Below are positions 9,307 to 30,374 of a stretch of 64,000 bases of DNA, piece by piece. Position 1 is the first letter of the stretch, and every line of letters begins with the position of its first letter. Position numbers and translations under genes: made by a program. The notes beneath the pieces are model-generated. The model ran no database searches. It saw only the letters and a list, made by a program, of their open reading frames with translations, and was not told the origin of the DNA. Origin of the DNA: Minisyncoccota bacterium (GTDB lineage Bacteria > Patescibacteriota > Minisyncoccia > JAHISW01 > Tagabacteraceae); assembly GCA_028711505.1 (NCBI GenBank), contig JAQTSC010000001.1:56447-120446 (forward strand), given 5' to 3'.

Positions 9307-11124
9307 TTAAAACTTATACACGTCTATTGATGTCCCCGCGCGGAAGACCGGAGTTTTTCCCAGTAGCCACGGATAAGTATCTTCAAATTTTTGTTTGAAA
9401 TTTTTTACCGGTACTGCGTGTCCTCCCTGCAGAAATGTGTGCGAAATGGCGAACCAGCTGCCCTCAGAAGGTTCTCCTTTTGCCGACCACCACTGCTCGT
9501 ACCTTTCACCAAAATAATATTTTGGATTTCCTCCGCCGAAATAATCAATTCCTATTTTTTTTATTTGGTTTTTGTCGGCAAAATCCTTGAGCCGTTTTAA
9601 ATCCTGCCCCCAATCGTAATTTGAGTCAACGGCGATTTTATAGCCGTTTTCCGTTCCGCCCCCCAAGATGTTGAAATAAGAAAGATAATAAGGATAAGTT
9701 GCTATCGCGGAAATAATCATCCAAAGAAGCAGTATTAGCAGCAAAGCGCCCCTTTCAACCGGCCTTAAATACTTCATAAAAAATTCTTTTATCTTTTCTT
9801 TAAAACTTCTCGGTTCCGAAAACGGCGGCGATTTTATCCATTTTATGGTTTGTCTCGCGACCAAAAGATAAATGAAGGGGAAGGTCGGAAGCACGTGCCT
9901 TACTCCTATGTTAAGAGGGCTTGATATTGCTTGAAACCAATAAACCGCGATAAATATAAAACTTGCCGTAAGCGCGAAATTTTCTCTAAGCCATGCGCAT
10001 GTTTTTTTGAAACTTTTATTTTTGCTTAAGATGATGTTTTTCAACCCAATTGCCATGGCCAAAAGAGTTAAAATGTGCAGAACAAGGTGTTCTTTAAAAA
10101 GATATAGCAAAGGAAAATATGAAGGCCACCCCGCCGCTGAAACTTCACCCATAAAATAAGTGGTGTTTCCTCCGGATGCTCGCTGAACAACCATAAGAAG
10201 ACCGACAAAATATTGGCCGATAGACCTGAATATCGGATTTCCGCACATCCAGACAGCGGCATCCACAAGCGGCCTTATCCCGAAGGAAGAGAGGTTAAAA
10301 ACGGCGTCACTTACTTGCCGTTCTATCGGATAATTCCAAACGTGAAAAACATAAACCGGCCATATCACAAAAAGTCCGATGATTCCTATCAAAATAGTTT
10401 TCGCGATAACGGACAGCTCTTCTTTCAAGAATTTTTTCCAATAAAAATTGTCTATGTTTTTTAAAAATACCCATGACACTCCGAAGACGGCGTATAGCGG
10501 CGCGAGAAGCACAAGCGAGAATTTTAAAAGCTGGGCAACTCCGAATGCCGCGCCCGCGATAATCAGGCTTTTTTTGTCTCCGCGGAAAAGGAAATTGAGA
10601 TAAGCGCTTATTCCTATGAAAAAACCAAAGGCCGCGCCAAGGTCAGTGGTAACATAGCGCGAGTGCGCCAGAAATGTCGGTGAAAAGCAGAAAAAGAAAA
10701 GGGCAAGAAGCGCCACTCTGTTTCCGTAAAGTCCTTGTATCAATTTGAAAAAAAGCCAGCCGAAAAGAACCGCGAGAATCATTATGGGCAGCCGGGAAAA
10801 AACGATTATGTTGTCGGCATTGTTTCCCGATTCATAAATGAAAATTCTTCCCATGTCCCATTGTCCGTTTATATATTCGCTCCATGCGGCCGCGTTCGTG
10901 GGAAAATTCAAATTTAAAAATAAAAGGGGGATAGCGGAGAGGTCTTTTATCAGGGGCGGATGCTCCGGGTTCAGACGATAATCTTTTTGCGAAAGATACG
11001 AATATCCCGAAGGTATATGCGCAAGCTCGTCCATGGTGGCGGAATCGCCCAGCGCGGAAGTAAAAATAATGCCGAACATCGCGAGAAGCATTAACCCTGC
11101 CGTGAAATTCACTATTTTTTTCAT
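9307..11124 (-). CDS. Polytopic membrane glycosyltransferase, GT39/GT83 (ArnT/PMT-like) family
   Basis: 605 aa with many TM helices. The N-terminal loop motif DELAHIPSGYSYL...HPPL is typical of PMT_2/ArnT-like lipid-linked sugar transferases. Confidence 0.7.
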   Translation of the reverse strand: MKKIVNFTAGLMLLAMFGIIFTSALGDSATMDELAHIPSGYSYLSQKDYRLNPEHPPLIKDLSAIPLLFLNLNFPTNAAAWSEYINGQWDMGRIFIYESGNNADNIIVFSRLPIMILAVLFGWLFFKLIQGLYGNRVALLALFFFCFSPTFLAHSRYVTTDLGAAFGFFIGISAYLNFLFRGDKKSLIIAGAAFGVAQLLKFSLVLLAPLYAVFGVSWVFLKNIDNFYWKKFLKEELSVIAKTILIGIIGLFVIWPVYVFHVWNYPIERQVSDAVFNLSSFGIRPLVDAAVWMCGNPIFRSIGQYFVGLLMVVQRASGGNTTYFMGEVSAAGWPSYFPLLYLFKEHLVLHILTLLAMAIGLKNIILSKNKSFKKTCAWLRENFALTASFIFIAVYWFQAISSPLNIGVRHVLPTFPFIYLLVARQTIKWIKSPPFSEPRSFKEKIKEFFMKYLRPVERGALLLILLLWMIISAIATYPYYLSYFNILGGGTENGYKIAVDSNYDWGQDLKRLKDFADKNQIKKIGIDYFGGGNPKYYFGERYEQWWSAKGEPSEGSWFAISHTFLQGGHAVPVKNFKQKFEDTYPWLLGKTPVFRAGTSIDVYKF

Positions 11125-11148
11125 AATTTTTTTAGATTAATAATGTTT

Positions 11149-12699
11149 TTATTTATATAGCATTTCAAATCCCGGAAAGACGCTTATTCTAACTCCGGGT
11201 TGAATTTGTTTTACTCTGTCGCGCAGCTTGGCGTCCGACTCAAGCGAAACTATAAAACAGGAATTTTTCGTCTCGGAACATTTTATTTTTTCGAGTTCGG
11301 AAGGAAGAAGATAAGTAAAATGTTTTTCCGCTTGTCCTTTTTCGGTAAAAGAACCGGTTAAAAACATTACGGTTTGCGCCGGCATCGGGATATTTTTTAC
11401 TTTTACTCCGTCAACATTAACAATCACGAATTTATCGGTCTGCGGCGGCACTTTGTTCAGGAAATTCGCTATGTCGCTTGCCCTGCCGTTAAAAGCGTAA
11501 TAGGTATTTATATTATCTCCCCATCTGATGAAATATTTCGTGTAGGTTGTTGTCGCTATTGCCGCGAGAAACACAAACAGAAAAAGAATCAACTCTTTTC
11601 TTATCCTTGAAATTTGATTTTCGTATTGGGGATATTTTTCCCGCTGTTTTTTAATCCAGCCGTTTACCGTTTCCGCTGTTTTTTCAAGTCCGATTCCGGC
11701 AAAGAGCATTACCGGCGGAATAAGAATTATGGAACGCAGAGCGTGCGGAATTCCTTCGTTTGAAATTACAACCGGAAGCGCCATCACGATAAGCCACAAG
11801 AACAGAAGAAGATATTTTCTGCGGATGATTGTCCAGAAAAAGCCGATTAAAAAGAGAATTCCTACCGGCCACCATAAAGAAGGAGAACCCGCCAGATTGT
11901 GCCTCCAATTCGCGTCTCCGTAGAAGAAAAGCATGTTCGCGGTTTTTACGGAATTTATCGCCAGATTTTTCAGCGGAGCGTCTGAAGAAAAAACCGAAAG
12001 CTGGGAAGTGCGTCCAAAAAAATCAGACGGATTTTTTAGAAAATACCACCCAAGAGGAATTGCCGCGATGAACGCCCCTAAAAGAAAAACAGCTATAATT
12101 TTTTTCTGCCCGCCTTTCCAAAGTTTTATGAAAGGGAAAATCAAAAGAAGAGGCGCGGCGCGATAGGCGATGTATGAATGGAAACCGAGTCCGAAAGCGA
12201 TACCCGCGAAAGCGCTTAATTTCCAGCTGTTTTTTCTTCCGGCCGCGAGCAGAAGAGCGAAAGCCCAGGTCAAGAAAAAAGGCGCCATTATGGCGCGGAA
12301 TCCTATGCGCGAAAAAAGCAGATGCCAAAAACTCGTGGCGAGGATAAATGAAGAAAATAGCGCGAGGCGTTTATTTCCGGTGAGCTCCTTTGCCAGATAA
12401 TAAAGCCCTAAAACTGTAAGTATTCCGAAAATTGCCGATACTCCGCGCAAAGCCCATGCTTCGTTTCCGAATATTTTTACGGACAGGGCTTGTATATTTA
12501 TAAAAAACCCTTCACGCCCGTTGTTTTCGGGGTAAAACATTTTGTAATCGCCCGATTCGTTCGCTTCAAGAGCGTTGCTTCCGTTCATGGCTTCATCGGA
12601 ATAAAGTCCGGGAGGGATTGATTGGATTTGCCAGAGGCGAAGAAAAGCGGCCGTTAAGATAATAAGCGACAAGAATATAAAAACGCTTTTTTTAGACAT
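11149..12699 (-). CDS. Second polytopic membrane glycosyltransferase, GT39/GT83 (ArnT-like) family
   Basis: 516 aa and multi-TM. The N-terminal LYSDEAMNGSNALEA motif is the DE..xG loop of ArnT/PMT-like enzymes. In tandem with the preceding GT. Confidence 0.7.
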   Translation of the reverse strand: MSKKSVFIFLSLIILTAAFLRLWQIQSIPPGLYSDEAMNGSNALEANESGDYKMFYPENNGREGFFINIQALSVKIFGNEAWALRGVSAIFGILTVLGLYYLAKELTGNKRLALFSSFILATSFWHLLFSRIGFRAIMAPFFLTWAFALLLAAGRKNSWKLSAFAGIAFGLGFHSYIAYRAAPLLLIFPFIKLWKGGQKKIIAVFLLGAFIAAIPLGWYFLKNPSDFFGRTSQLSVFSSDAPLKNLAINSVKTANMLFFYGDANWRHNLAGSPSLWWPVGILFLIGFFWTIIRRKYLLLFLWLIVMALPVVISNEGIPHALRSIILIPPVMLFAGIGLEKTAETVNGWIKKQREKYPQYENQISRIRKELILFLFVFLAAIATTTYTKYFIRWGDNINTYYAFNGRASDIANFLNKVPPQTDKFVIVNVDGVKVKNIPMPAQTVMFLTGSFTEKGQAEKHFTYLLPSELEKIKCSETKNSCFIVSLESDAKLRDRVKQIQPGVRISVFPGFEMLYK

Positions 12700-13334: not shown

Positions 13335-15779
13335 ATGGAATTTATCGCGTTCCTTTTTAGTCCTTATCCCGTTGCCGGGCTTCTTGCTTTGGCTGCGGTT
13401 TTTCTCATATATCATTTCTTGCGTTCTTCACGTGAAAAAGAGTTTTTCCGCTCTCTGGATTTTACTCTTTTCGAGATTATTTTGCCCCGTCCGGAAAAAG
13501 AAGAAGGCAAGACTTTCAAAGACGCTATCGCCGTGATGGAACAGTTTTATTCGGGCATGTCGGGTTTGAAGTCGCACTTTGCGCTTGAACTGGTTTCTCC
13601 GGCAACGGAAAACGAGACTAATTTTTACGTTTCTATGCCGAAAAGCCATGCGTCTTTTTTCGAAAAGCAATTGCATGCCGTTTTTCCTTCTGCCGAAATA
13701 AGGGAAGAAAAAACCGATTACAATATTTTTAAATACAAATATCCGACCGCGGCGGCGGAAGTCGTTTTCACCCAGCCTTCGGTTCTTCCTCTAAGAACTT
13801 ACGATGAGCTTGTAAACGACCCGTTATCGGTTATCGCCAATGTTTTTTCGGATATCAAAAGAGAAAAAGAAGGCGCCGCTTTCCAGATAGTGATAAATCC
13901 TTTTGCAAAAGGATTAAAAAGCGATGTTGAAAAGTCGCTTAAGCTTTTGCAGGCGGGAGAGCCTATAAAAAAAGCGCTGGAAGGAGGGCGGGGTTTTTTT
14001 GAAGGATTTTTAGATATCATTTTCCATAACGATTCCAAGAAAGGGAATTCCGACCCCGCTTCCATGGCAAGAGGCGCGCTTTCCGCGGCGCAGGAAGCCC
14101 GTTCCGAAGTGATAAAAATTTTAACGAAGAAAATTTCCAAACCGATTATGTCCGCGAATATCCGGCTTGTGGCGTCCGGACAGACAGAGGATCGCGCTCA
14201 AAAAATACTTGAAGAAATGAAAAGCGCTTTTTCCCAGTTCAATGATCCGCGCGCCAATTCGTTTGCGTGCAAAGATGTTTCTGGCTGGGGATTGCGCAAA
14301 TTTTTCTACAATTTTTCTTTCAGGCTTTTTGACAAAAAAAGAGCCCTGGTTTTAAATATCGCCGAGCTCACGGGCATTTTTCATTTTCCGACTACTTTGG
14401 CTTTGGCTCCCAGGATGAAATTCCTTAAAGCGAAAAAAGCCGAACCGCCGATAAACCTGTCCGCGAACGGAATTATTATCGGTAAAAATATTTTTCGCGA
14501 CGAAGAAAAAGAAATAAAAATCGCTCCTGACGACCGCCGCCGGCATTTTTATTCCGTTGGCCAGACCGGCACCGGCAAGTCCGTTCTTATGAAAAACATG
14601 GTTGTTCAGGATATAGAAGAAGGCAGGGGCGTGTGTTTTATAGACCCTCACGGAGACGCGGTTGAAGAAATAATGGGGTTGATTCCCTTTGAAAGGTGGA
14701 ACGATATCGTTTACTTTAATCCGGGTGATGCCACGCGTCCTTTCGGTATGAATATGCTGGAATTTGATTCCAAATATCCGGAGCAAAAAACTTTCATCAT
14801 AAACGAACTTCTTGAAATTTTTAACAAGCTCTATGACATGAAAGCAGCCGGCGGTCCGATGTTTGAGCAGTACTTCAGAAACGCCACTTTGCTTGCCATG
14901 GAAGATAAAGACGGCACTCTGCTTGAAATTTCCCGCGTTCTTTCCGATTCGGAATTCAGGGCAAAAATGCTTTCGCGGACACAGAATCCTTTGCTTAAAA
15001 ATTTCTGGACCGAGACGGCGGAAAAGGCGGGAGGCGATGCCACGCTACAGAACATGGTTCCTTACATTACGAGCAAATTTGACACATTTCTTTCAAATGA
15101 AATAATACGGCCCGTGCTTTGCCAGTCGCGTTCTTCTTTTAATTTTCGCGAAGCGATGGACAGCGGTAAAATTGTTTTGATAAATCTTTCAAAGGGAAGA
15201 ATCGGCGAAACGAACGCTTATCTTTTGGGAATGGTTTTTGTCGGAAAACTTTTTATGGCGGCGATGTCTCGCGCGGACTTGCCGGAAGAAAAACGCAGAG
15301 ATTTCTTTTTATATATAGACGAATTCCAAAACGTAACGACAAATTCCATTTCAATGATTTTATCCGAAGCGAGAAAATATCGCTTGTGCCTGAATATCAC
15401 GCATCAATTTATCGGTCAGCTTACGGAAGACATCAAGAAAGCTGTCTTTGGAAATGTGGGTTCGTTTGCTGTCTTTAGAATAGGGAAAGACGATGCCGAA
15501 TACCTCGCAAAACATTTTGAGCCGGTTTTTAACGCCGAGGATTTGATGAATATCGGAAACTATAACGCTTACGTAAAACTTTTAATAAACGGGGAGACAT
15601 CGCGTCCGTTTAACATAGAAACTTACGCTCCGGCAAAAAGCGAAGAAGCCGTACGCGAAAAAACCAAAGAAGTTTCGGCAATAAAATACGGCCGGCCTTT
15701 GCGCGAAGTGGAGTCGGAGATAAATAAGAGGTATTTGCGGTTATCCGGCAGTGGAGAGGCGGAAGGCGAGATGGAATAA
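13335..15779 (+). CDS. Membrane-anchored P-loop ATPase of the type IV coupling protein (TraD/TraG/VirD4) / FtsK-HerA superfamily
   Basis: N-terminal TM helices. Walker A in HFYSVGQTGTGKSVLM, Walker B in FFLYIDEFQNVTT, and a T4CP-like C-terminal block (NITHQFIGQLTEDIKKAVFGNVGSFAVFRIG). 814 aa. Confidence 0.55.
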   Translation: MEFIAFLFSPYPVAGLLALAAVFLIYHFLRSSREKEFFRSLDFTLFEIILPRPEKEEGKTFKDAIAVMEQFYSGMSGLKSHFALELVSPATENETNFYVSMPKSHASFFEKQLHAVFPSAEIREEKTDYNIFKYKYPTAAAEVVFTQPSVLPLRTYDELVNDPLSVIANVFSDIKREKEGAAFQIVINPFAKGLKSDVEKSLKLLQAGEPIKKALEGGRGFFEGFLDIIFHNDSKKGNSDPASMARGALSAAQEARSEVIKILTKKISKPIMSANIRLVASGQTEDRAQKILEEMKSAFSQFNDPRANSFACKDVSGWGLRKFFYNFSFRLFDKKRALVLNIAELTGIFHFPTTLALAPRMKFLKAKKAEPPINLSANGIIIGKNIFRDEEKEIKIAPDDRRRHFYSVGQTGTGKSVLMKNMVVQDIEEGRGVCFIDPHGDAVEEIMGLIPFERWNDIVYFNPGDATRPFGMNMLEFDSKYPEQKTFIINELLEIFNKLYDMKAAGGPMFEQYFRNATLLAMEDKDGTLLEISRVLSDSEFRAKMLSRTQNPLLKNFWTETAEKAGGDATLQNMVPYITSKFDTFLSNEIIRPVLCQSRSSFNFREAMDSGKIVLINLSKGRIGETNAYLLGMVFVGKLFMAAMSRADLPEEKRRDFFLYIDEFQNVTTNSISMILSEARKYRLCLNITHQFIGQLTEDIKKAVFGNVGSFAVFRIGKDDAEYLAKHFEPVFNAEDLMNIGNYNAYVKLLINGETSRPFNIETYAPAKSEEAVREKTKEVSAIKYGRPLREVESEINKRYLRLSGSGEAEGEME

Positions 15780-15819: not shown

Positions 15820-16314
15820 ATGAGCATTTTCGGTAAAATAAAAAGTCATAAGATTTTTTGGGGAGTTGTCATTGCCCTGCTTTTTATTGTGGTTTTGGAT
15901 TTGACCGCCCGGTGGTACGAAATGTATCAAGACCAGAAAAAAGTTGAAAATCTGGCAAAATCTCTGGAAGAAATGGACAGGTTGGTTTTAGAGGCGCGCG
16001 CCGCGGATAAGATTGGAGGCAAAACCCCGCAGGAAACATTGGATTTATTTATTAATGCGGTTGAAAAAGGCGATTATGAGTTGGCTAGTAAATATTTTGT
16101 GTTGGAAGAAAAAGAAAATACTAAGAAAGAATTATTGATTTTAGATGAAAAGAACAAGACAGAATGGTATTTGGCTATTTTGAAAAACGCAAAATCCGAC
16201 GGAGAAATAAAAGACGGGTCTTTTAGAATGAGATCAAAATTAGAAAATCCTCCTGACTATTTAATTAATTTTTCTCAATATCCATCTGGTAATTGGAAAA
16301 TAGAAAAGATTTAA
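15820..16314 (+). CDS. Small membrane-anchored (signal-anchor) hypothetical protein
   Basis: 164 aa with a single N-terminal TM segment (IFWGVVIALLFIVVLDL) and a charged extracytoplasmic domain. Confidence 0.5.
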   Translation: MSIFGKIKSHKIFWGVVIALLFIVVLDLTARWYEMYQDQKKVENLAKSLEEMDRLVLEARAADKIGGKTPQETLDLFINAVEKGDYELASKYFVLEEKENTKKELLILDEKNKTEWYLAILKNAKSDGEIKDGSFRMRSKLENPPDYLINFSQYPSGNWKIEKI

Positions 16315-16321
16315 TCAAAAT

Positions 16322-19300
16322 ATGAAAAAGGCCATTTTGCTTTTTATCATTTTCAGCCCTTTGCTTTTCAGCCGGGCTGTTTTTGCGTATAACGACACAA
16401 ATACGCACCCCGCTTTAACCGACGAAACAATAGATTTTTATAATTCAATTTCAGAAAATAAGCTCACGGACGAAGAAAAAGAATGGATTATTTCCGGCGC
16501 GGAAGGCGAAGATACCCCTCCCAGATGGACAAATCATTTTTACGACCCTGTCTATGACGAAGGTTTTACCGGTGAGCGCGGTCCTTCAAACATTATAAAC
16601 GAACTCTCGGGAAAATATTCGGACGTCTGGCTTTCGGTGGAAGACGCTGTTTCCGCAAAGATCTGGTCGCAAAATCAGGAACTTCAGGCAAAATATAGGC
16701 TTTATAAAGGCAATAAAACCTGGGAAAAAGCGATTTACGAATATGTAAAAAATAATAATAAACAGGAAGCATTTTATTCATTAGGTTTTGTTTTGCATCT
16801 TTTGCAGGACATGGCAGTGCCTGATCACACAAGAAACGACAGTCATCCGCCAACCGACGGCAGTCCTTATGAAAATTATTGCGTCGGGTTTAATAGAAAT
16901 AATTTCAGCATCCAAGATAAAATAAAGGGGAATCAGCCTGCTTCTTTAACTTCTCTGGATAATTATTTTGATTATTTAGCCAATTACTCAAACAAATATT
17001 TTTTTAGTAAAGATACGATAAATGACGAGAAATACGAGAACCCAAAAATTATAAAAGTTGAAGGTGATTATGGTTATGGTCCTGATAATAGAGGGAATGA
17101 ATTTAAGATAGTGGGTGCTACTAGAGAAATTAAAAATGGTGAATTGAAAATTTCGTATTTTTTAAGAACCCAGGAGGAAAAAGTTTTTGAATCTTATTGG
17201 TCTCGCCTGTCCACTGAAGCCGTTCTGTCCGGAGCAGGAGTTATAGAATTATTTTTTAGCGAAGCCGAAAAAGCGAAAAATAATCAGAACCTGCTTGAAG
17301 AACCTCCTCAAGAGAAATCAGCCATCGTGAGTATTTTTATGGGCGATTTTTCTTTTGCCGGAGAATATTTCCGCATGGGAAAACTGGCCAATGGCGCAAA
17401 AGATTGGTTTTCAAATACGTTTAACAATTTTGCCAGCGCTCTTATGTCTCCGTTTTATGGAAAAAACAACTTGAATTCCGGTCTTGCTAATGTTGTTTTC
17501 TCCGAATCAAGTGAAGCCGAACCGCCAGCCCAATCCGCTTACGATGATGAAATTGAACAGCCGCAGATATTGCCTCAAATACTTCCGCAAGAAACAATTC
17601 AAGCTTTTGAAACACAGACGCAAGAAACATCCGCTGAAATTGAAGTTTTAGAAGAAATTTTGCCTGAAGCCGTAATAACAGAAGTTATACCGGAACCCGA
17701 GCAGATACCGGATTTTTTAAAAACCATTCCTATCCCGCCTATTGCTATGGGCGGTGGCGGCAGTCCTTCAGTCGGGTCAACAGTCTTGCCGCAAACAAAC
17801 TCAACGCAGAATTCTTCAAACCAGCCAGAATCCTCATCTTTTGTTTCAGCCCCGCCAGAGCCTCCGGCAGACACTACTCCGCCGGACATTTCATTTGAAA
17901 TTGCCGAGTGCGCCGATTCGTTTTCGGAAGAAGGATGTGTTATTGCTCCGCAGATTATTCACTTATCCTGGCAAAGCGTTGCCGGTGATATTGAAGAATT
18001 TGAACTTACAATAAACGGTACCGCGCAAGCGCTGGCTACAACTTCTACTTCAACCGAGTTCAGCGCGATTCAAGACAACGCAGCTCATTCTTTTTCAATT
18101 CGCGCGAAAGATTCGTCGGACAATTATTCGGACCCGCAATCCATTGACATTGAAATTTTTTCCGCGCCAATAGTAATAAACGAAATTGCATGGGGAGGCA
18201 CTTCGGGCAGGCCGAACGATGAGTGGGTTGAACTTTACAATAAATCTTCAAGCGCGATAAATCTCGCGAATTGGACCTTGTCATCAGCCGACAGCGAACC
18301 GTACATAATTTTATCGGGAAAAATCTCTCAAAAAGGTTATTGTCTTCTTGAACGCACCGATGATAATACTATCAGTGATATAGCGGCTGATTTGATTTAT
18401 ACGGGAGCGTTAAACAATACCGGGGATGATCATCTGACTTTGTATTTCGCTTCAACCACAATAGACCAAACTCCTTTGGGGAATTGGCCTGCCGGAACAT
18501 CGGCAGGTTTTTCAATGGAAAGATACGATTCAAAAACCAGCGGGGATAATCCTTCTAATTGGCTCACAAACGATACTCCGATAGCGAATGGTTTGGCTTC
18601 GGGCCCGGAATTTTACAAAATTGCCGGAACTCCAAAGCAAAGAAATAGCGCCAATTATCTTGTAAACAAGAATCAGAATATTTTTTCCGACATTGTCTTA
18701 AAAAAATCAGAAAGCCCGTACTTCATCGACGGCACCGTCATAAATGTTTCCGCTTCGGCTACTCTTACGATAGAACCCGGCGTTGTCATCAAATTTCATA
18801 ATGACGCCGGCCTAAAAATTGACGGAAAAATTTTAGCGCAAGGGACGGAAAATGACAAAATTGTTTTTACTTCAATAATGGATGACGAATACGGCGGAGA
18901 TACAAACGGAGCCGATGCGACAACAACTTTGCCTTATCCGGGAAGCTGGTTTGGCGTCGTAGTAAGCGAAACAGCTCCGGCTGGTTCAATTTTTGATTAT
19001 GCTATTTTAAGATACGCAGGAAAATATTATACCGGACAAACGCAGGAACGCGCCTTGCTTGCGTCAAAAGGTTCGGTTATTACGGTTTCAAACTCTATTT
19101 TTGAATATTCAAAAGTTTACGGGCTTAAGCTTGCCGGTTCAAATTCGCTTGTGAAAAATAATATATTCAGGAATAACAATACAGCTGGCATCACTTCGCC
19201 TAAGGCCGCGCTCTACGCAGGTTCGTGCTTGCCGACCATATCCGGAAATTTGTTTGAAAAAAATAATGCGGGAATTTATCTGGCTGACGCGCCGGGAATA

Positions 19301-20116
19301 GTGAGCGGCAATACTTTTACGAATAATGCCGGTGATGCGATTTTATCCTTCGCTTCCGTGGGAGAATTCACGAATAACACGGCTTCCGGAAATTTAAGAA
19401 ACAGCGTCAGCATTTTTGGAAACATTACCGAACCCGGAGAAAATCTTTTTTTGAAGGCCGACAATCTTGCTTATTATTTTATGCCGGGAGAAAATATTCA
19501 GGTTTCAACTTCTTCGTCTTTGACCATTGAAAAGGGAGCCGTTGTAAAAAGCGATGGAAAACCGCTTTGGGTTTATGGAAATCTTGTTATTGCGGGAGAA
19601 AATTCCGGAGATGTTATTTTCACTTCGTTTTATGACGATACCGCGGCTGGCGATTCAAACGCGGATATGGCACTAAGTTCAGCCGCTCCGGGGCAATTTG
19701 CCGGAATTGAAATTAAGACGGGCGCTTTTCTTCGGGCCAAGGGCTTTGAAATGCGATATTCCGGACACGGGAATTTTGAGGGCGGTAATTCCGCCGGTAT
19801 GGAAATTTTGGGCGGAGTAGCCGATATTTCAAACGCGGTTTTTAGCCAGAATTACGCTCATGGAATTTTTGCCCAAAATTCACCCTCGCTTAAAATTTCA
19901 AACACCAGCTTTAAAAATCACACTATAACCTCGCCATACGGAGTGAAAGCCGCTTTGGCTGTTTATAGCACCATCGCTACGTTTTCAAACATTACTTTTG
20001 AAAATAACTTGATTGGTGTGATAGGGAATTCCGAATCGGTTTTTACAATAGACCCATTGGATTCTATAATTTGGACGAATAATACGGAAAATATGTTGCC
20101 CGTGGATTTATTTTGA
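16322..20116 (+). CDS. Giant secreted multidomain protein: zinc-dependent phospholipase C / P1-nuclease-like N-domain, Pro/Gln-rich linker, Ig/Fn3-like module, lamin-tail domain (LTD), C-terminal right-handed beta-helix repeats
   Basis: Signal peptide MKKAILLFIIFSPLLFSRAVFA. NHFYDP and HLLQDMAVPDH motifs resemble Zn-PLC (alpha-toxin has DHFWDP). PQILPQILPQ linker. LTD signature INEIAWGGTSGRPNDEWVELYN...LANWTL. Multiple NN(I/T)F..N..G(I/A) parallel beta-helix repeats over roughly aa 770-1264. Confidence 0.65.
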   Translation: MKKAILLFIIFSPLLFSRAVFAYNDTNTHPALTDETIDFYNSISENKLTDEEKEWIISGAEGEDTPPRWTNHFYDPVYDEGFTGERGPSNIINELSGKYSDVWLSVEDAVSAKIWSQNQELQAKYRLYKGNKTWEKAIYEYVKNNNKQEAFYSLGFVLHLLQDMAVPDHTRNDSHPPTDGSPYENYCVGFNRNNFSIQDKIKGNQPASLTSLDNYFDYLANYSNKYFFSKDTINDEKYENPKIIKVEGDYGYGPDNRGNEFKIVGATREIKNGELKISYFLRTQEEKVFESYWSRLSTEAVLSGAGVIELFFSEAEKAKNNQNLLEEPPQEKSAIVSIFMGDFSFAGEYFRMGKLANGAKDWFSNTFNNFASALMSPFYGKNNLNSGLANVVFSESSEAEPPAQSAYDDEIEQPQILPQILPQETIQAFETQTQETSAEIEVLEEILPEAVITEVIPEPEQIPDFLKTIPIPPIAMGGGGSPSVGSTVLPQTNSTQNSSNQPESSSFVSAPPEPPADTTPPDISFEIAECADSFSEEGCVIAPQIIHLSWQSVAGDIEEFELTINGTAQALATTSTSTEFSAIQDNAAHSFSIRAKDSSDNYSDPQSIDIEIFSAPIVINEIAWGGTSGRPNDEWVELYNKSSSAINLANWTLSSADSEPYIILSGKISQKGYCLLERTDDNTISDIAADLIYTGALNNTGDDHLTLYFASTTIDQTPLGNWPAGTSAGFSMERYDSKTSGDNPSNWLTNDTPIANGLASGPEFYKIAGTPKQRNSANYLVNKNQNIFSDIVLKKSESPYFIDGTVINVSASATLTIEPGVVIKFHNDAGLKIDGKILAQGTENDKIVFTSIMDDEYGGDTNGADATTTLPYPGSWFGVVVSETAPAGSIFDYAILRYAGKYYTGQTQERALLASKGSVITVSNSIFEYSKVYGLKLAGSNSLVKNNIFRNNNTAGITSPKAALYAGSCLPTISGNLFEKNNAGIYLADAPGIVSGNTFTNNAGDAILSFASVGEFTNNTASGNLRNSVSIFGNITEPGENLFLKADNLAYYFMPGENIQVSTSSSLTIEKGAVVKSDGKPLWVYGNLVIAGENSGDVIFTSFYDDTAAGDSNADMALSSAAPGQFAGIEIKTGAFLRAKGFEMRYSGHGNFEGGNSAGMEILGGVADISNAVFSQNYAHGIFAQNSPSLKISNTSFKNHTITSPYGVKAALAVYSTIATFSNITFENNLIGVIGNSESVFTIDPLDSIIWTNNTENMLPVDLF

Positions 20117-20265: not shown

Positions 20266-20595
20266 ATGAAGATTTCGGAATATGCGGATTTTCAGGAAGC
20301 GGTTCTTTCTTTTCAGCCGTTGGACAAAGAATTTATAAGTGTTCGCCATGAACTCGATCCTACGGAAGAAATAAGACCGCATTATCATCCTAAAGCCACG
20401 GAGTGGATTATTGTTTGCGAAGGCACTTTTGATGTTCAAATCGGGGACGAAGCGCTTACCTTTTATAGCGTTTCGCCCGGCGAGTTTTTGGTGATAGAAA
20501 TTCCAAAAAAAGAGCCGCATACTTTTTACGCGCAAAAAAAGACGAAATATCATGTATATCGGGAAAGGAAGGACAGAATAATTTACTGCAAATAA
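20266..20595 (+). CDS. Cupin-domain protein 1
   Basis: 109 aa with strong RBS AGGAGAGGAGGGG. Two-His cupin motif HYHPKATEWIIVCEGTFDV...PGEFLVIEIPKKEPHTFY. Confidence 0.7.
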   Translation: MKISEYADFQEAVLSFQPLDKEFISVRHELDPTEEIRPHYHPKATEWIIVCEGTFDVQIGDEALTFYSVSPGEFLVIEIPKKEPHTFYAQKKTKYHVYRERKDRIIYCK

Positions 20596-20615
20596 AAAAC
20601 AAGGAGGATCTTTGG

Positions 20616-20978
20616 GTGATAAAAACGGTTATAGGCGTCAAAAAATTGCCATTAACTTCCAATGTATGCAAGCAGGCTGTAAGAGAGGTCATTAATCTTA
20701 ACCGGGCAAGCGTTGCCCATGTGGAAGTGCAGCCGGGAGATGCATCTCTTTTGCACAGACATAAAATCTTTACTCAGCTCTATTACATTTTGGAAGGCAG
20801 GGGCAGGATGTATGTTGGCGGACGCGGTGATTTTCCGGTGGCTAAAGACACTTTGATTTGGATAGCTCCGGGAAGGCCGCACAAATTGGAAAATACGGGC
20901 AGAAAGATTTTAAGCCATTTGGTCATCTCTATTCCCCCATTCAGTCAAACCGATGTGGAGGTAATTGATGAGCAATAA
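20616..20978 (+). CDS. Cupin-domain protein 2
   Basis: GTG start with RBS AAGGAGG 8 nt upstream. HRHKIFTQLYYILEGRGRMYV...IWIAPGRPHKLENTG cupin barrel. Confidence 0.65.
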   Translation: MIKTVIGVKKLPLTSNVCKQAVREVINLNRASVAHVEVQPGDASLLHRHKIFTQLYYILEGRGRMYVGGRGDFPVAKDTLIWIAPGRPHKLENTGRKILSHLVISIPPFSQTDVEVIDEQ

Positions 20979-21345
20979 ATCGTACGTCGGAAAAAGAAAA
21001 AAGGGAGGTTTTTCTGTTGCCAAAGACGGCGCTTTTATTTCTGAATTTGAATGGCCTGGCAATTCTAAGATTCGGAAAACAAGCACCACCTGCGGTCGTC
21101 TCAATCCAGGGCAAAAAGCAAAGCTTCATCGCCATGAGGTTTCCGAAGAAATGTGTTATGTGCTATCAGGTCATGGCGAGATAAAGGTGGGTGAGATTGT
21201 AGAAAAAATAGGAAAAGGTGATGTTGTCTGCATACCCGCCCGCGCTGCTCACTCGCTTAAAAACATCAGTCAAAAGAAACTTTTGAAAGTTTTAGCTTTT
21301 TATTCTCCCATGTGTACGGACGGCAGCACTACTTTTCTTGAATAG
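20965..21345 (+). CDS. Cupin-domain protein 3
   Basis: Overlaps cupin 2 by 14 nt, with RBS GGAGG. HRHEVSEEMCYVLSGHGEIKVG...VCIPARAAHSLKN cupin barrel. Confidence 0.7.
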   Translation: MMSNKSYVGKRKKGGFSVAKDGAFISEFEWPGNSKIRKTSTTCGRLNPGQKAKLHRHEVSEEMCYVLSGHGEIKVGEIVEKIGKGDVVCIPARAAHSLKNISQKKLLKVLAFYSPMCTDGSTTFLE

Positions 21346-21725: not shown

Positions 21726-23123
21726 ATGAAGCATAAATTTATTTTTGGTTTTATCGCGTTTATTTTAATTTCCGCCGCTGGGGGCGCGGCTGTGCTTGTT
21801 AATCATTACAAAAAAGCAAGAATCGGGGCTTCGGAGGACGGCGGCGTCGCGCAAAATATTCAAGTTTCAAAACCATGGGTGGAAGTGTTAAAGCCGAACG
21901 TTTACGCGTCTGTTGAAAGCGGCGAAAAAAAATCTTTGCAGACCGGAGATGAAATTGATTCCGGCTATACCGTAGAGACCGACACATGGGGTTTGGCGAA
22001 CATTTATTTTCCGGATGGCTCGGTGGCGCGCCTTGATTCCGGAACGCAGATTTTTTTGGAAGAAGGCGAATACAGCGATTCAGACCAAAGTCTGAAAGTA
22101 AAAATATCTTTAAGCGCCGGCAGGGTGTGGTCTAAAATAATAGAACTTGCCACACCCGATTCGCTTTGGGAAGTGAAAACAACGAATGCGGTTGCCACTG
22201 TGCGCGGCACCGCTTTCGGTTTTGAACACATAGACGGAAAATCCAGCGTCGTCGGTTCTGAAAATCAGGTGGAGCTGGCGCCGATTGACCCGGACACGAA
22301 AGAAATTTTAACCGACAAAAAAGTAATTATTTCGCCGAATAAAATAGTTGAATTGAAAAGGCAGGATTTGGGAGAAATTAAATCAGGCAAAATCGCCATC
22401 GCGGATAAAGTGAAAGAAGCAGGGCCTGAAGTTTTGGAAAAGGAATGGGTAAAACGCGCCGCGGCGTCCGATGTCGTTTTAAACGAAAAAATTAAAGAAA
22501 TAAAACAAAGGGTGGAAGAAAACAGAGGCGAGGATATAAATAAGGAAGAATTGAAAAAAGAAATCAAGCAGGAAATTCGCAATGAAATCAAAAAAGACGC
22601 GATAAAACCTTTTATTCAGGAAATAGAAAAGAGGAGGATTGAGAAAGAAGAGTCAAAGCAAAAGTCAAAAGATAATATTTTGGAAAATAAAAATATTCAG
22701 AGCGAAGAGAAAAAAATTTTAAAACCTCAAACCGAAGGCGGGCAAGCGGGAACGGGCGCTGGAAACCAGGGAACAAAAGAATCTTTAAAGCCGATTAAAT
22801 TATTGGTAAGACCCGCGGATTTTTCCGGTGAAATAAAAGAAGGAGAGAGAATAACTTTTCAGGCGGTGCTTATCATGGCCGACAATTCGGAAAAAATCGT
22901 TACCGAAGGCGTAAAGTGGCAAGTTCTTGGGCAAATGGGAAAAATGGAGCGGCCCGGGGTTTTTTATGCCGAGCTTGATTCGACGATTTCCGAGTTTGGG
23001 GAAGCGTCAGGCGCGGTAATAGCGGTTTGGGAAAGCGAAGACGGAACTGTAAATTTTTTGGCAAAAACGAAAATTTTTAAAGTGAGAGCCCGCGTTGAAG
23101 AAACAACTGACACCCGCGGATAA
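21726..23123 (+). CDS. Membrane-anchored FecR-domain protein with Lys/Glu-rich coiled-coil and C-terminal Ig-like region
   Basis: N-terminal TM helix. FecR-like beta segment (DSGYTVETDTWGLANIYFPDGSVARLDSGTQIF...VATVRGTAFGF). KEIKQEIRNEIKKD charged repeats. Confidence 0.55.
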   Translation: MKHKFIFGFIAFILISAAGGAAVLVNHYKKARIGASEDGGVAQNIQVSKPWVEVLKPNVYASVESGEKKSLQTGDEIDSGYTVETDTWGLANIYFPDGSVARLDSGTQIFLEEGEYSDSDQSLKVKISLSAGRVWSKIIELATPDSLWEVKTTNAVATVRGTAFGFEHIDGKSSVVGSENQVELAPIDPDTKEILTDKKVIISPNKIVELKRQDLGEIKSGKIAIADKVKEAGPEVLEKEWVKRAAASDVVLNEKIKEIKQRVEENRGEDINKEELKKEIKQEIRNEIKKDAIKPFIQEIEKRRIEKEESKQKSKDNILENKNIQSEEKKILKPQTEGGQAGTGAGNQGTKESLKPIKLLVRPADFSGEIKEGERITFQAVLIMADNSEKIVTEGVKWQVLGQMGKMERPGVFYAELDSTISEFGEASGAVIAVWESEDGTVNFLAKTKIFKVRARVEETTDTRG

Positions 23124-23124
23124 T

Positions 23125-24882
23125 ATGAAATCTAAAATATACTATTTTATTATTGCCTCGCTTGCCGGCGTTTTGGTTTGTTTTTCTTTTTATTTCGGGA
23201 TTTTTTCCGGACTTGAAGTTTTTTTTGAAGATTTGTTTTTCGCGCCGAAGCCGGTGAGCGGAGATTTTGTGATTGTTTCGATTGACGACGAGTCTTTGTC
23301 GCGTATCGGTCAGTGGCCGTGGCCGCGCGAGGTTTTTGCAAAAGCTCTTCTGGAGATGGAAAAAAATACCCCGCTTGCCGCAGGGATGGACATTGTTTTT
23401 TCGGAACTTTCTTCAAATGGAGCTGAAGACGACGAAAAGCTGGCGTCTGCTTTGGGAAAAATTTCTTATCCCGTTGTCTTGGCAAGCGAAGCGCAAAATA
23501 TTTTTTTAAGCCAGGACGGGACAATTACGGCTTCGGAATTTATAAAACCGCTGGATAGTTTTACAAATGAAAAAAACGTAAGTTTGGGGCATGTGAATTT
23601 GATTTTAGACAGAGATAATGTGGCGAGAAAAATCCCTTTTTTGATTTCTGAAAAAAGTCCCGAAGGAATCGAATCCCAGATGCCGTTTGCTTATGAAATT
23701 GTTAAAAAAACCGGGAAAAATATCAGCAGTGAGCGGACGCTTGAAGGCGTAAACCGCATTGTTTATTCATCTTTGCCCGGAACGATAAAAAGAATTCCTT
23801 TTTGGCGTGTTTTGGAAGGGCAGGTTTCGGGCGAATTGAAAGACAAAATTGTTTTCATTGGCGCGACGGCGCCGGATCTTCATGACGATAAACCTGTTCC
23901 GAATGCCAGGGGAAAAACGATGGCGGGTGTTGAAATACAAGCAAATGTCGCGAACATGCTTATTTTCGGTTATCGTTTGGTTCCGCTTGGCAAGTTCTAT
24001 TCCTTTTTGTGGATTTTTATCAGCGCGCTGTTTCCGGTTATTTTTATTTTGTTGTTCAGGCGTTTTCTTTCCGCGCTGTCCGGTGTTTTGATTTTGGGAA
24101 TTTTATATATTATTTTTTGCGCGGTCCTTTTTGACCTTGGAGTAAGCGCCAGCGTTTTGCACATAAGTTTGTCGTGGCTTCTTTCTTCCGCGGGACTTTT
24201 CGGATTCAGACATTTTTCCGGAGAAAAAGACAAACTTCAGCTTAAGCGGATTTTTTCCAAATATGTTTCCGCCGGAGTTTTGGAAGAAATTTTAAGCAAT
24301 CCGAAAAAGGTCGCGCTTGGCGGAGAAGAAAAAGAAATTACGGTTTTGTTTTCCGACATAAGGGGATTTACTTCCATTTCGGAAAAAACTCCGCCGAAAG
24401 AACTTGTTAGAATTTTAAATAAATATTTTTCGGCGATGACGGAAGAAATTTTGAAACAGGGCGGAGTTTTGGATAAATATATAGGCGATGCGATAATGGC
24501 TTTTTGGGGAGCTCCTTTGGAAGAGCCGGACCAGGCGGATAACGCTTTGAGAGCGTCAAAAAACATGATGAAAAGGCTGAAAATTCTAAATGAGGAGTTT
24601 AAGGCCGCCGGAGACCCGGAAATAAACATAGGAATAGGGCTTTGTTCGGGCATGGCGGTGGTGGGAAACGTAGGTTCGGAAGAAAGGTTTGATTATACGG
24701 CGATAGGTGATACGGTGAACGCGGCTTCGCGGCTTGAAGGGCTTACGAAAGAATATCAAGTAAAAATAATTTTGAGCGAAAGCGTGAAAGCTAAGGCAAA
24801 AAACGATTATGATTTTAAATACCTCGGAGCGGCGGCGGTAAAAGGGAAAGACGAGCCGATAAAAATTTACACCGTCATTTAA
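23125..24882 (+). CDS. CHASE2 sensor-domain class III adenylate/guanylate cyclase
   Basis: ATG 23125 sits 1 nt after the upstream stop. Periplasmic CHASE2-like domain (VIVSIDDESLSRIGQWPWPR), TM block, then cyclase core (ITVLFSDIRGFTSISE...KYIGDAIMAFWGAP...GIGLCSGMAVVGNVGS). Confidence 0.8.
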   Translation: MKSKIYYFIIASLAGVLVCFSFYFGIFSGLEVFFEDLFFAPKPVSGDFVIVSIDDESLSRIGQWPWPREVFAKALLEMEKNTPLAAGMDIVFSELSSNGAEDDEKLASALGKISYPVVLASEAQNIFLSQDGTITASEFIKPLDSFTNEKNVSLGHVNLILDRDNVARKIPFLISEKSPEGIESQMPFAYEIVKKTGKNISSERTLEGVNRIVYSSLPGTIKRIPFWRVLEGQVSGELKDKIVFIGATAPDLHDDKPVPNARGKTMAGVEIQANVANMLIFGYRLVPLGKFYSFLWIFISALFPVIFILLFRRFLSALSGVLILGILYIIFCAVLFDLGVSASVLHISLSWLLSSAGLFGFRHFSGEKDKLQLKRIFSKYVSAGVLEEILSNPKKVALGGEEKEITVLFSDIRGFTSISEKTPPKELVRILNKYFSAMTEEILKQGGVLDKYIGDAIMAFWGAPLEEPDQADNALRASKNMMKRLKILNEEFKAAGDPEINIGIGLCSGMAVVGNVGSEERFDYTAIGDTVNAASRLEGLTKEYQVKIILSESVKAKAKNDYDFKYLGAAAVKGKDEPIKIYTVI

Positions 24883-27587: not shown

Positions 27588-27636
27588 TTAGAAGGAAGGG
27601 GAAAAATAATAATAAAAACTAATTTGACCCTAAACC

Positions 27637-27707
27637 TGCGGGGTCGTCTAGCGGTAGGACATCGCCCTTTGGAGGCGAGTACCTTGGTTCGAATCCAAGC
27701 CCCGCAG
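27637..27707 (+). tRNA. tRNA-Gln (anticodon TTG), CCA not encoded
   Basis: Manual cloverleaf. Acceptor TGCGGGG/CCCCGCA, D-arm GTCT..GGAC, anticodon stem TCGCC/GGCGA with loop CTTTGGA (U33, TTG, G37), T-arm CTTGG-TTCGAAT-CCAAG, discriminator G. Confidence 0.8.
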
Positions 27708-27734
27708 GTTTGCGGTCAAATTGTCGCGGGATCG

Positions 27735-28520: not shown

Positions 28521-30374
28521 ATGAGTCAATCAAACGCCAATAACTTCGCGGAAAAGTTTTCAAAAAATACCATAATCAAGCTCTTCGCATGCGTCGGGCT
28601 TGCCGTTTTTTGGGTGGTGTTTCTTTGGAATTTTTGGGATAGGGAAGTATATGCTTTGGGCATCAACGCCCTTGTTTTTTTTGCGTTATTCCTCGGATTT
28701 TTTATTTGGGTCCTTTTTGAAAAAGGCAGATGCTTGAAGAAGGATACTCTTTGGATTGTCCCGTTATCGTTGATGATTGTCAGCTTTTTTTTGTATGATA
28801 ATCCGTTTGTGAAAGTTGTGACATTGCTTGTCGGCCCTGTTTCTTTTTTCGTTTTTTATAACTATTCCTTTTTGAAAGACAGGAGGGAAAAATCGTGGAA
28901 TTTATCTTTCGCGCTGAGTTTGTTTATTGGACGCCTAGTGGCAATTTTCGGCAATATCGGCAAGTCGGCTATTTTGTATTTAGAGTTTATAATCCCGGCA
29001 AACGAGAAATATAAAAAGATTATTGCCAGAATACTTATAGGGTTTGTTTTTTTTGTGATCATCTCGCTTGCCGTTTTGATCCCCTTGCTGTCTTCGGCAG
29101 ATGCGGTTTTTGCTCACTCCGTCAAAGCGGTTTATGATTGGGCAACAAAAATCATATCGCTACCGTTTGCGAAAAAGCTGTTTTTTGCAGCCATTCTTTC
29201 CGTAATTTTTTTAGCAGCGGTGATTACATGGGAAAAGGAATTTGATTATAACAAAAAAGAAAAAGAAACTTTTCCAATAGATTCCATTATTGCCGGTATT
29301 GTGCTTGGAGGCATCCTGATAGTGTATTTGCTTTTTTTGTGGATACAAATCGGTCATTTATGGGTCGGTTCATTGCCGTTTGATTTTAAAACTACTGAAA
29401 ATTTGGTAAAAAGCGGTTTTTGGCAGCTGTTGGTTTTGACGTTTCTTAATATTTTTATTTACTTTTTCATCTATAAAAAGACTTCATTGTTTGTGCAGAA
29501 AATTTTACTTGCATTTACCGCGGCTTCATTATTGCTTCTTGTTTCAGCGGGATACCGCATGGGTCTATATGTGATTTTTTACGGATTTAGTTATGAGAAA
29601 TTTTTTGCCTCATATACGGTATTATTTTGCGCGTTGCTTTTTTTCTGGCTATTATTGAGATTAGTTGTTGATAAAAAAACAGATATTCTTAAAACGGCGG
29701 TTGTTCTGTTTATTTGGATGTACGGGGTGATGACGGTTTTCCCCGTAGAACAGTTTATTTTTCGTTCAAACATAGCGCTCTCGCATCGTGAAGATTCGCG
29801 CATTAAACTCTCGGAACTTTCCATGCTTTCGCCGGATGTGCTGGGATTGGTAAAAAGATATGAAGCGGCGGGTGTTTTGAAAAAAGAAACGTTTGATTGG
29901 ACGCCTTGGATAGAAAGCCAGGAGAAAAAAGTTGCTGATAAAAAGTGGTACGAGCGCAATGCGATGAACCTGCTTTATCTGGCAAATAAAACTGAAACAG
30001 AAAATAATTTGGTCGGCGGCGACAAAGACGTTTACGGCTGTATCGGTTCTGCCGGCTACTCGTGGTGTGAAGCAAAACAAAAATGTATCAGAAGTTGGGA
30101 AGAATATTGTACGATAACAACGCCAAAGAAAGTTGTTTTCGCTTGCGACGGCTCAAAAACAATCACTGCCACGTTTTATATTGGCGACGATAAATTTGTT
30201 GATTTGGAATTAAGCGATGGCAAAAAACTTTCCGTGCCGCGTGCCATATCCGCTTCCGGCGCGCGATACACTAAAGCCGACGAGACTTTTGTTTTTTGGA
30301 ACAAAGGAGATACGGCGTTCATAACCGAGGGCGCGGATAGCGTTGAAACTTATTCAAACTGCAATCTTCAATAA
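28521..30374 (+). CDS. Polytopic integral membrane protein with a C-terminal MliC-like (C-type lysozyme inhibitor) domain
   Basis: About 12 predicted TM helices over aa 1-400. The C-terminal 90 aa (CDGSKTITATFYIGDDKFVDLELSDGKKLSVPRAISASGARYTKADETFVFWNKGDTAFI...SNCN) match the MliC fold pattern (C...SGARY...FW.KGD...C). Confidence 0.55.
   Translation: MSQSNANNFAEKFSKNTIIKLFACVGLAVFWVVFLWNFWDREVYALGINALVFFALFLGFFIWVLFEKGRCLKKDTLWIVPLSLMIVSFFLYDNPFVKVVTLLVGPVSFFVFYNYSFLKDRREKSWNLSFALSLFIGRLVAIFGNIGKSAILYLEFIIPANEKYKKIIARILIGFVFFVIISLAVLIPLLSSADAVFAHSVKAVYDWATKIISLPFAKKLFFAAILSVIFLAAVITWEKEFDYNKKEKETFPIDSIIAGIVLGGILIVYLLFLWIQIGHLWVGSLPFDFKTTENLVKSGFWQLLVLTFLNIFIYFFIYKKTSLFVQKILLAFTAASLLLLVSAGYRMGLYVIFYGFSYEKFFASYTVLFCALLFFWLLLRLVVDKKTDILKTAVVLFIWMYGVMTVFPVEQFIFRSNIALSHREDSRIKLSELSMLSPDVLGLVKRYEAAGVLKKETFDWTPWIESQEKKVADKKWYERNAMNLLYLANKTETENNLVGGDKDVYGCIGSAGYSWCEAKQKCIRSWEEYCTITTPKKVVFACDGSKTITATFYIGDDKFVDLELSDGKKLSVPRAISASGARYTKADETFVFWNKGDTAFITEGADSVETYSNCNLQ

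Follow-up and report, generated by a model that had tools for sequence, protein, structure and literature searches.

Zinc-dependent phospholipases C of bacteria (Zn-PLCs; PF00882), such as the phosphatidylcholine phospholipase C (PC-PLC) of Bacillus cereus (1AH7), PlcB of Listeria monocytogenes (8CQM) and the clostridial alpha-toxins (1OLP, 1CA1), are the closest described relatives of the protein examined here, which is encoded by one large gene within a 64,000-nucleotide stretch (the window) of contig JAQTSC010000001.1 from a Minisyncoccota bacterium, and whose N-terminal head shares their fold. In the PLCs, as in P1 nuclease, the first mature residue (Trp1) is a zinc ligand, with its amino and carbonyl groups both taking part. 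Activation of B. cereus PLC and PlcB involves a propeptide, whereas the head described here would, on our interpretation, be activated by signal peptidase alone. It is 17-20% identical in sequence to the Zn-PLCs, and its first histidine lies 6 residues past the N-terminus, as compared with 13 or 10 in the PLCs. In place of the PLAT/C2-like domain of alpha-toxin, this protein continues for approximately 950 further residues, comprising a linker, an immunoglobulin-like (Ig-like) module, a lamin tail domain (LTD) and two beta-helices. Unlike the Zn-PLCs, it also belongs to a family with a near-constant partner gene for an NTF2-like protein.

Other described systems share some of these features. 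The S1/P1 nucleases (5FB9, 8QJL, 3W52; PF02265) belong to the same superfamily and would have in common with the head the trinuclear-zinc phosphodiesterase chemistry, an aromatic ligand at the mature N-terminus and a short spacing to the first histidine. Phospholipases with dedicated accessory or immunity proteins include Pseudomonas aeruginosa PlcH with PlcR and the Tle effectors of type VI secretion systems with their Tli proteins, and NTF2-like folds serve as immunity proteins of polymorphic toxins. The similarity would be that of a membrane-active enzyme adjoining a small dedicated chaperone, anchor or neutraliser. In contrast to PlcR and Tli, to which no homology was detected, the partner described here has only a weak match to Pfam DUF4878; its gene lies upstream, its product appears to be borne on a stalk in the membrane, and the pair is not accompanied by a toxin-delivery system. 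The LTD phosphoesterases and nucleases of the Shewanella ExeM type likewise combine a secreted or surface phosphoester hydrolase with a lamin tail domain, but their catalytic domains are of the EEP, metallo-beta-lactamase or calcineurin type. Both membrane targeting and DNA binding have been proposed as roles of the LTD (PMC6085458, PMC4486849), and a Zn-PLC-fold domain is not on the quoted list of LTD partners (PMC6085458).

A large part of bacterial diversity belongs to the Patescibacteria, or candidate phyla radiation (CPR) bacteria. These organisms are unable to make fatty acids or lipids, and the way in which they obtain or degrade host lipids is explicitly described as unknown (PMC11665869); lipidomic data suggest neighbouring cells as the source of their lipids (PMC7242380). 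Our analysis identifies a Patescibacteria-wide subfamily of the Zn-PLC fold with a new architecture, a near-obligate NTF2-like partner and a presumably familiar chemistry. No description of the family, its PLC-like head or its partner was found in the literature on LTD, PLC or PF00882 in connection with Patescibacteria, CPR or Saccharibacteria, which yielded general remarks on phospholipases and lipid dependence of CPR bacteria only. Names in public databases refer to the LTD or the beta-helix alone, and the partner is called hypothetical; the present assignment corrects these annotations and adds the Zn-PLC fold to the phosphoesterases known to be combined with LTDs. The module is widespread yet unannotated and bears directly on the open question of CPR lipid acquisition, and the pair offers a concrete, clonable two-protein candidate for host-membrane attack or lipid salvage in these bacteria.

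A zinc phospholipase C-fold head domain

The original prediction described a giant secreted protein combining a Zn-PLC-like N-domain, an LTD and a pectate-lyase-like beta-helix. The open reading frame and the motifs that it quoted were all located in the 1264-residue translation, in the order given: NHFYDP (residues 71-76, positions 16532-16549), HLLQDMAVPDH (residues 159-169, 16796-16828), PQILPQ (414-419), INEIAWGG (619-626), DEWVELYN (633-640) and LANWTL (648-653). Because NCBI holds an identical protein ('right-handed parallel beta-helix repeat-containing protein [Candidatus Pacebacteria bacterium]', on a 234-kb contig) and at least 420 homologues were scored, the reading frame is a real gene and not a chance one. 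No paralogue was found within the window. The protein consists, in order, of a signal peptide, the Zn-PLC-fold head, a linker of about 220 residues, a weakly assigned Ig/Fn3-like module, the LTD and two tandem beta-helix modules; the features of the pair are as follows.

15820..16314, forward strand: partner gene, 164 residues, directly upstream of the large gene
16322..20116, forward strand: large-protein gene, ATG start, 1264 residues (open reading frame listing of the window)
16322..16387, forward strand: signal peptide, residues 1-22 (hydrophobicity; predicted signal peptidase I cleavage between AVFA and YNDT)
16388..17272, forward strand: zinc-metallophospholipase-C-fold domain, residues 23-317 (family profile, homologues, predicted structure)
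17273..17926, forward strand: linker, residues 318-535 (composition and motif)
17927..18160, forward strand: Ig/Fn3-like module, residues 536-613 (weak assignment)
18164..18466, forward strand: lamin tail domain, residues 615-715 (PF00932)
18629..19441, forward strand: right-handed parallel beta-helix module 1, residues ~770-1040 (PF13229 E 3.7e-11, NosD E 7.7e-8, DUF1565 E 2.2e-4)
19442..20113, forward strand: right-handed parallel beta-helix module 2, residues 1041-1264 (PF13229 E 6.4e-6)

The fold of the head was assessed with an AlphaFold2 model built from an alignment of the trimmed N-domain and 49 diverse homologues, which share 37-60% identity with the query. The model, with a predicted local distance difference test score (pLDDT) of 93.1 and a predicted template-modelling score (pTM) of 0.92, has the all-alpha PLC fold. 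Structure comparison gave the following scores.

B. cereus PLC (1ah7): 21.2 (203 residues aligned, 2.4 A)
Alpha-toxin (1olp): 20.5
Listeria PlcB (8cqm): 19.8
S1 nuclease (5fb9): 14.3
SmNuc1 (8qjl): 13.4
Endonuclease 2 (3w52): 9.2
All others: 6.2 or below

A Foldseek search with the same model returned Zn-PLCs as its 16 best chains, all with a probability of 1.00 and at E 2e-4 to 1e-2; among nucleases the top match had E 0.16. Relative to the known PLCs, the model contains an inserted four-stranded beta-hairpin sheet and a 40-residue C-terminal helix.

Sequence profiles point in the same direction. When compared with the Protein Data Bank (PDB), the profile of the trimmed N-domain matched B. 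cereus PLC (E 7e-5) and Listeria PlcB (E 6e-4) and no nuclease; trimming was needed for this match, as the full-length family profile retrieved an Fn3 domain only, and no PLC. Direct alignment by hhalign to a B. cereus PLC sequence that agrees with the stretches visible in database alignments gave a probability of 94% and E 1.2e-7. The stretch HLLQDMAVPDHTRN would have no strict match, with four mismatches, to what we take to be the PROSITE-type Zn-PLC signature (H-Y-x-[GT]-D-[LIVM]-[DNS]-x-P-x-H-[PA]-x-N). Neither a Pfam PF02265 match nor the closest structural neighbours place the head among the S1/P1 nucleases. At the level of fold and family we assign the head to the Zn-PLC branch of bacteria within the PLC/P1 superfamily, which upholds the proposed Zn-PLC-like N-domain and settles, at that level, the choice between PLC and P1 nuclease that the original prediction had left to profile and structure comparison.

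We next considered the metal site, for which the nine ligands of the trinuclear zinc cluster of B. cereus PLC (W1, H14, D55, H69, H118, D122, H128, H142 and E146) served as reference. The hhalign alignment pairs H72 with H69, H159 with H118, D163 with D122, H169 with H128 and E184 with E146, while Y23, H29 and D64 were matched to W1, H14 and D55 by their order, their invariance and position 1 of the Pfam profile. Eight of the nine PLC ligands have putative counterparts on this basis, which are invariant or nearly so in the family. The putative ligands are Tyr23 (through its main chain), His29, Asp64, His72, His159, Asp163, His169, Glu184 and probably His175. Conservation was read from an alignment of the first 378 mature residues with 118 homologues (119 sequences, 35-56% identical to the query), in which the conserved domain ends at about mature residue 295. 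Invariant columns, in precursor numbering (mature numbering plus 22), are H29, D64, R68, H72, D75, P76, H159, D163, H169, R171, D173, H175 and E184, corresponding to H7, D42, R46, H50, D53, P54, H137, D141, H147, R149, D151, H153 and E162 of the mature protein. A few structural residues of the head are likewise invariant, and Y1 (Tyr23) is conserved in at least 90% of the sequences. Loss of the His/Asp/Glu ligands, or of homology to the PLC/P1 families, was looked for: the ligands are conserved and the homology is clear.

The N-terminus of the mature protein would be part of this site. The sole strongly hydrophobic segment found in a hydropathy scan of the large protein covers residues 4-22 and is followed by AVFA and YNDTNTH, between which cleavage of the signal peptide is predicted. 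An aromatic residue (Y in 211, F in 11, W in 8) stands shortly before the invariant first histidine in 230 of 231 family proteins, at a spacing of 6 residues in 223 members and of 5 or 7 in the remaining 7, and at a median position of 26. Of these, 226 members carry A, S or G at position -1, and the residue at -3 is small or aliphatic. Among the 150 best representatives from the scan of 1.84 billion proteins described below, the head domain begins at residues 4-73, nearly always 20-40, directly past the signal peptide. The pattern that precedes the aromatic residue is very probably a signal peptidase I site, and because this AxA-type pattern lies directly before it, the aromatic residue is predicted to become the first mature residue by processing, as in the PLC family.

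The same N-terminal spacing is P1-like, and it is one of the features that speak for the main rival view, in which a P1/S1-like head would cleave DNA, RNA or nucleotides outside the cell as a nuclease or nucleotide phosphodiesterase, the LTD would assist in nucleic acid binding, and the module would serve nucleotide scavenging by an organism unable to make nucleotides. The invariant arginines of the head, the association of LTDs with nucleases (PMC6085458, PMC4486849) and one homologue bearing a staphylococcal nuclease (SNase) domain also fit this view, but the structural and sequence distances to the nucleases argue against it, and we consider it unlikely.

C-terminal modules, family and the paired gene

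The part of the protein that follows the head is built of modules. The linker opens, after the last helix of the head, with a motif common to many homologues (KAKxNPxLLExPPxExSAIxSxxGE; residues 318-350, 17273-17370) and continues with an aromatic-rich stretch and then low-complexity sequence rich in S, E, P and Q, including PQILPQILPQ, in agreement with the PQILPQ-rich linker originally described. Beyond about residue 350 it could not be aligned across the family, and a Pfam search with residues 316-535 returned no match. The Ig/Fn3-like module that had been proposed is plausible but weak: with the family profile, the chitinase A1 Fn3 domain (1k85) is found at E 4.8e-4, whereas the single sequence reaches E 0.06 only and Pfam returned for residues 536-613 nothing beyond Big_15, also at E 0.06. 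The LTD is well defined, with PF00932 scoring 46.0 bits (E 7.7e-12) on the full protein and 51.2 bits (E 1.8e-13) on the fragment, above the cut-off of 34.3, over profile positions 6-103 of 109.

The remaining residues, predicted to comprise about 500 residues of beta-helix repeats, do match beta-helix families. PF13229 scores 53.9 bits on the whole protein (cut-off 25.9) in two stretches, residues 914-1035 and ~1152-1229, and NosD (PF05048) scores 32.5 bits (cut-off 23.6). With separate fragments as queries, the beta-helix matches cover residues 914-1007 and ~1152-1229. The two modules are a tandem duplication, with residues 800-985 aligning to residues 1052-1233 at 33% identity over 193 residues (E 2e-18). 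The label 'pectate-lyase-like' holds for the beta-helix fold but goes no further, as no pectate-lyase family or catalytic signature was among the Pfam matches at E<=1. A PDB sequence search with residues 601-1264 gave no match, and the hydropathy scan revealed no C-terminal anchor, sorting motif or transmembrane segment in the large protein.

The family defined by the head is large. A scan of 1.84 billion proteins gave 1010 representatives of 50% clusters at E<=1e-30, 4291 at E<=1e-10 and 6886 at E<=1e-3, and a relative is encoded in at least 496 genomes of different species (496 of the 600 pattern-matched stretches listed, on contigs from one genome per species). Nearly all named records are Parcubacteria-type Patescibacteria, with Nomura-, Azam-, Wolfe-, Yonath-, Lipton-, Jorgensen-, Magasanik-, Yanofsky-, Sung-, Harrison- and Terrybacteria among the groups named. 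Certain loci (L006, L020, L029, L034-L036, L040, L044, L051 and L007) are labelled Gammaproteobacteria, Nanoarchaeota, Legionellaceae or Omnitrophota, yet carry the CPR-type pair; these labels probably reflect mis-binning, labelling error or placeholder taxonomy.

Across the family the head is constant and the C-terminal modules are variable. By hand count of Pfam annotations, the LTD is present in 113 of the best 120 homologues and beta-helix families in roughly half, and alternative tails contain Ig-like, PKD, PQQ-propeller or fn3 domains and, in one case, SNase. This distribution bears on the suggestion that the protein is a non-catalytic adhesin or surface-layer protein, with the PLC-like head as a binding or structural module only. 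The large repetitive architecture and the Ig-like, LTD and beta-helix modules are typical of adhesins, and CPR bacteria commonly have giant proteins on their surface (PMC8080830). However, the conserved part of the protein is the head and the variable part is its adhesin-like modules, and over 119-231 sequences at 35-56% identity there is little or no variation in any of the aligned metal ligands or in the aromatic residue predicted to form the processed N-terminus, which argues for a preserved active site. We therefore regard a purely adhesive protein as very improbable.

The gene immediately upstream on the same strand encodes the partner, and its stop codon is separated from the ATG of the large gene by 7 nucleotides (TAA-TCAAAAT-ATG). 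Neither this gene nor the large family with its variable tails featured in the original prediction. The 164-residue partner appears to have an N-terminal transmembrane helix (residues 12-30), a helical stalk extending to residue 62 and an NTF2-like ectodomain (residues 63-164); in its AlphaFold2 model (pLDDT 93.2), one long helix (residues 9-62) forms the transmembrane segment and stalk and is followed by an alpha+beta cone. Invariant motifs of the ectodomain are D-x2-GGKTPQETL...AVE.GDYELASKY and YPSGNWKI, and the strongly conserved stretches extend these to GGKTPQETL..FI.AVE.GDYELASKYF and YPSGNWKIEEI. All 407 members of the partner family are annotated as hypothetical, and 41 of 53 members match DUF4878 (PF12870) below its cut-off of 24.1 bits. 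A homologue of the same length, 41% identical, occupies the corresponding place in another Pacebacteria genome.

The linkage of the two genes was counted from both sides. Starting from the N-domain, a homologue of the small gene (phmmer E 1e-7 to 1e-35) lay directly upstream on the same strand in 77 of the 83 loci fetched; three of the six exceptions are contig edges, and in the other three the small gene lies 0.6-4 kb upstream. Starting from the small gene, 80 metagenome loci were fetched, 70 of them with enough downstream sequence, and here the N-domain followed directly in 64, slightly further on in 4 more, and was absent in 2. Hence the association holds in both directions and is almost obligate, and the two genes form an operon.

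Substrate and proposed mechanism

What we propose for zinc binding, catalysis, substrate, protein-protein interaction and biological role is what we infer from these comparisons, and the host attachment, lysis or DNA scavenging originally suggested are likewise conjectural. The module would be a two-gene unit of Patescibacteria, mainly of the Parcubacteria/Paceibacteria lineages. The large protein would be exported by Sec and cut by signal peptidase after Ala22, leaving Tyr23 as the mature N-terminus, whose amino and carbonyl groups would close the trinuclear zinc site, just as the N-terminal residue does in B. cereus PLC, alpha-toxin and P1 nuclease. His29, Asp64, His72, His159, Asp163, His169, Glu184 and probably His175 would supply the remaining ligands. 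Since the N-terminal aromatic ligand would be freed by signal peptidase, export would complete the active site and thereby itself switch the enzyme on. The head would then be a divergent but catalytically complete member of the Zn-PLC fold that most likely hydrolyses phosphodiesters; the substrate that we favour is phospholipid of the membrane of a host or neighbouring cell, with diacylglycerol as the product.

A flexible linker of some 220 residues would join this enzyme to the Ig-like, LTD and two beta-helix modules, which are probably the parts that bind the target surface and set the enzyme's site of action, as they are swapped freely among homologues. The partner, presumably co-translated, would most likely bind the conserved head, and it may tether the anchorless enzyme on the surface of the producer, shield the producer's own membrane, or both.

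That the head cuts the head-group phosphodiester of membrane phospholipids is the reading we favour, although only at about even confidence. A phospholipid substrate is preferred, with similarly balanced confidence, because the closest structures are all PLCs, the organisms lack lipid synthesis, and there is a precedent in Vampirococcus, another CPR bacterium, for which a secreted phospholipase has been proposed in such a role (PMC8080830). A more specific version, which we consider quite unlikely as a whole, is that the pair is a host-lipid harvesting machine of Parcubacteria-type Patescibacteria. In it, a surface-displayed enzyme, aimed by the LTD and beta-helix, would trim host phospholipids at the contact site, and the partner, by means of its cone for hydrophobic ligands, would capture the diacylglycerol, hand it to the membrane of the epibiont and shield that membrane.

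Several observations weigh against a phospholipid-cleaving head. PF00882 (Zn_dep_PLPC) matches the protein over residues 129-191 only, with 18.3 bits (E 0.0024), below the gathering cut-off of 26.8. Three homologues exceed this cut-off from profile position 1 (P0008, P0015 and P0017; 27.9, 33.5 and 27.3 bits) and four fall just short of it (P0003, P0026, P0099 and P0118), so that the family straddles the threshold. In the hhalign alignment, no histidine of the head aligns with PLC His142, in contrast to the known Zn-PLCs, and that the invariant His175, or Asp173 in the same loop, takes its place is a guess. The loop between Asp64 and His72, which in B. cereus PLC corresponds to the loop forming the choline pocket, is shorter than in the Zn-PLCs (7 intervening residues, as compared with 13 in B. 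cereus PLC) and holds the invariant Arg68; a second invariant arginine, Arg171, and Asp173 come after His169. On account of the shorter loop and its invariant arginine, head-group specificity would differ from that of PC-PLC, and an anionic substrate, nucleic acid included, is possible. Extracellular nucleases and phosphoesterases are the typical fusion partners of LTDs (PMC6085458, PMC4486849), and one homologue (P0081) combines a PLC-like head and an LTD with a staphylococcal nuclease domain (PF00565), which hints at an action of some members on nucleic acid or in its vicinity. The window annotation contains no lipid-metabolism genes near the pair. Finally, no fusion of partner and enzyme was seen among 231 enzyme-family and 120 partner-family proteins, and the partner is no more than a candidate anchor, inhibitor or lipid acceptor.

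The remodelled head-group loop, together with the invariance of Arg68, Arg171 and Asp173, would also suit an enzyme directed at a different phosphodiester of the cell envelope, such as the glycerol-phosphate of teichoic or lipoteichoic acid, glycerophosphodiesters, or only anionic lipids (phosphatidylglycerol, cardiolipin). The beta-helix and LTD would in that case bind cell-wall carbohydrate; NosD/Beta_helix-type modules are commonly carbohydrate-binding, and variable C-terminal modules would suit surface-specific targeting. Yet no PLC-fold enzyme with such a substrate is among the solved structures matched, and if the substrate is an anionic phospholipid this alternative merges with the membrane-phospholipid reading. 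We think it improbable, to about the same degree as a nuclease.

Neighbouring genes in the window

The other genes of the window are those of an ordinary Patescibacteria chromosome, including DprA, SerRS, FtsQ, DNA polymerase III tau, TGT, GAPDH, GatB, UvrABC, AlaRS, RpoA, GrpE-DnaK-DnaJ and one tRNA-Gln. A TrwB/TraG/HerA-like P-loop ATPase (814 residues; 13335-15779, forward strand) lies directly upstream of the pair and was considered as part of a secretion module, but it was rejected because just 1 of the 83 related loci retains it there. Immediately 3' of the large gene are three consecutive small cupin-domain genes (109, 120 and 126 residues; 20266-21345, forward strand). Further on (21726-24882, forward strand), a gene for a FecR-domain protein (465 residues) overlaps by 29 nucleotides one for a fusion of a CHASE2 sensor with an adenylate/guanylate cyclase (595 residues), possibly a pair that converts a surface signal to a cyclic nucleotide. 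Neither the cupin genes nor the FecR/CHASE2-cyclase genes are conserved beside homologues, and both were rejected as parts of the module.

On the reverse strand at 9307-12699, two adjoining genes encode membrane-bound glycosyltransferases of the PMT_2 type (dolichyl-phosphate-mannose-like; 605 and 516 residues), which suggests that functions for glycosylating proteins or lipids of the surface lie close to the locus. A DUF4153 membrane protein with a C-terminal MliC lysozyme-inhibitor domain (28521-30374, forward strand) is convergent with a gene for a GH18 glycosidase with a peptidoglycan-binding domain (30391-31842, reverse strand). Lastly, a partial tRNA-like match to Rfam RF00005 (27753-27807, forward strand; 40.3 bits, model positions 9-63) begins 45 nucleotides past the tRNA-Gln gene (27636-27708); ARAGORN makes no call there, and the match could be an unusual or degraded tRNA.

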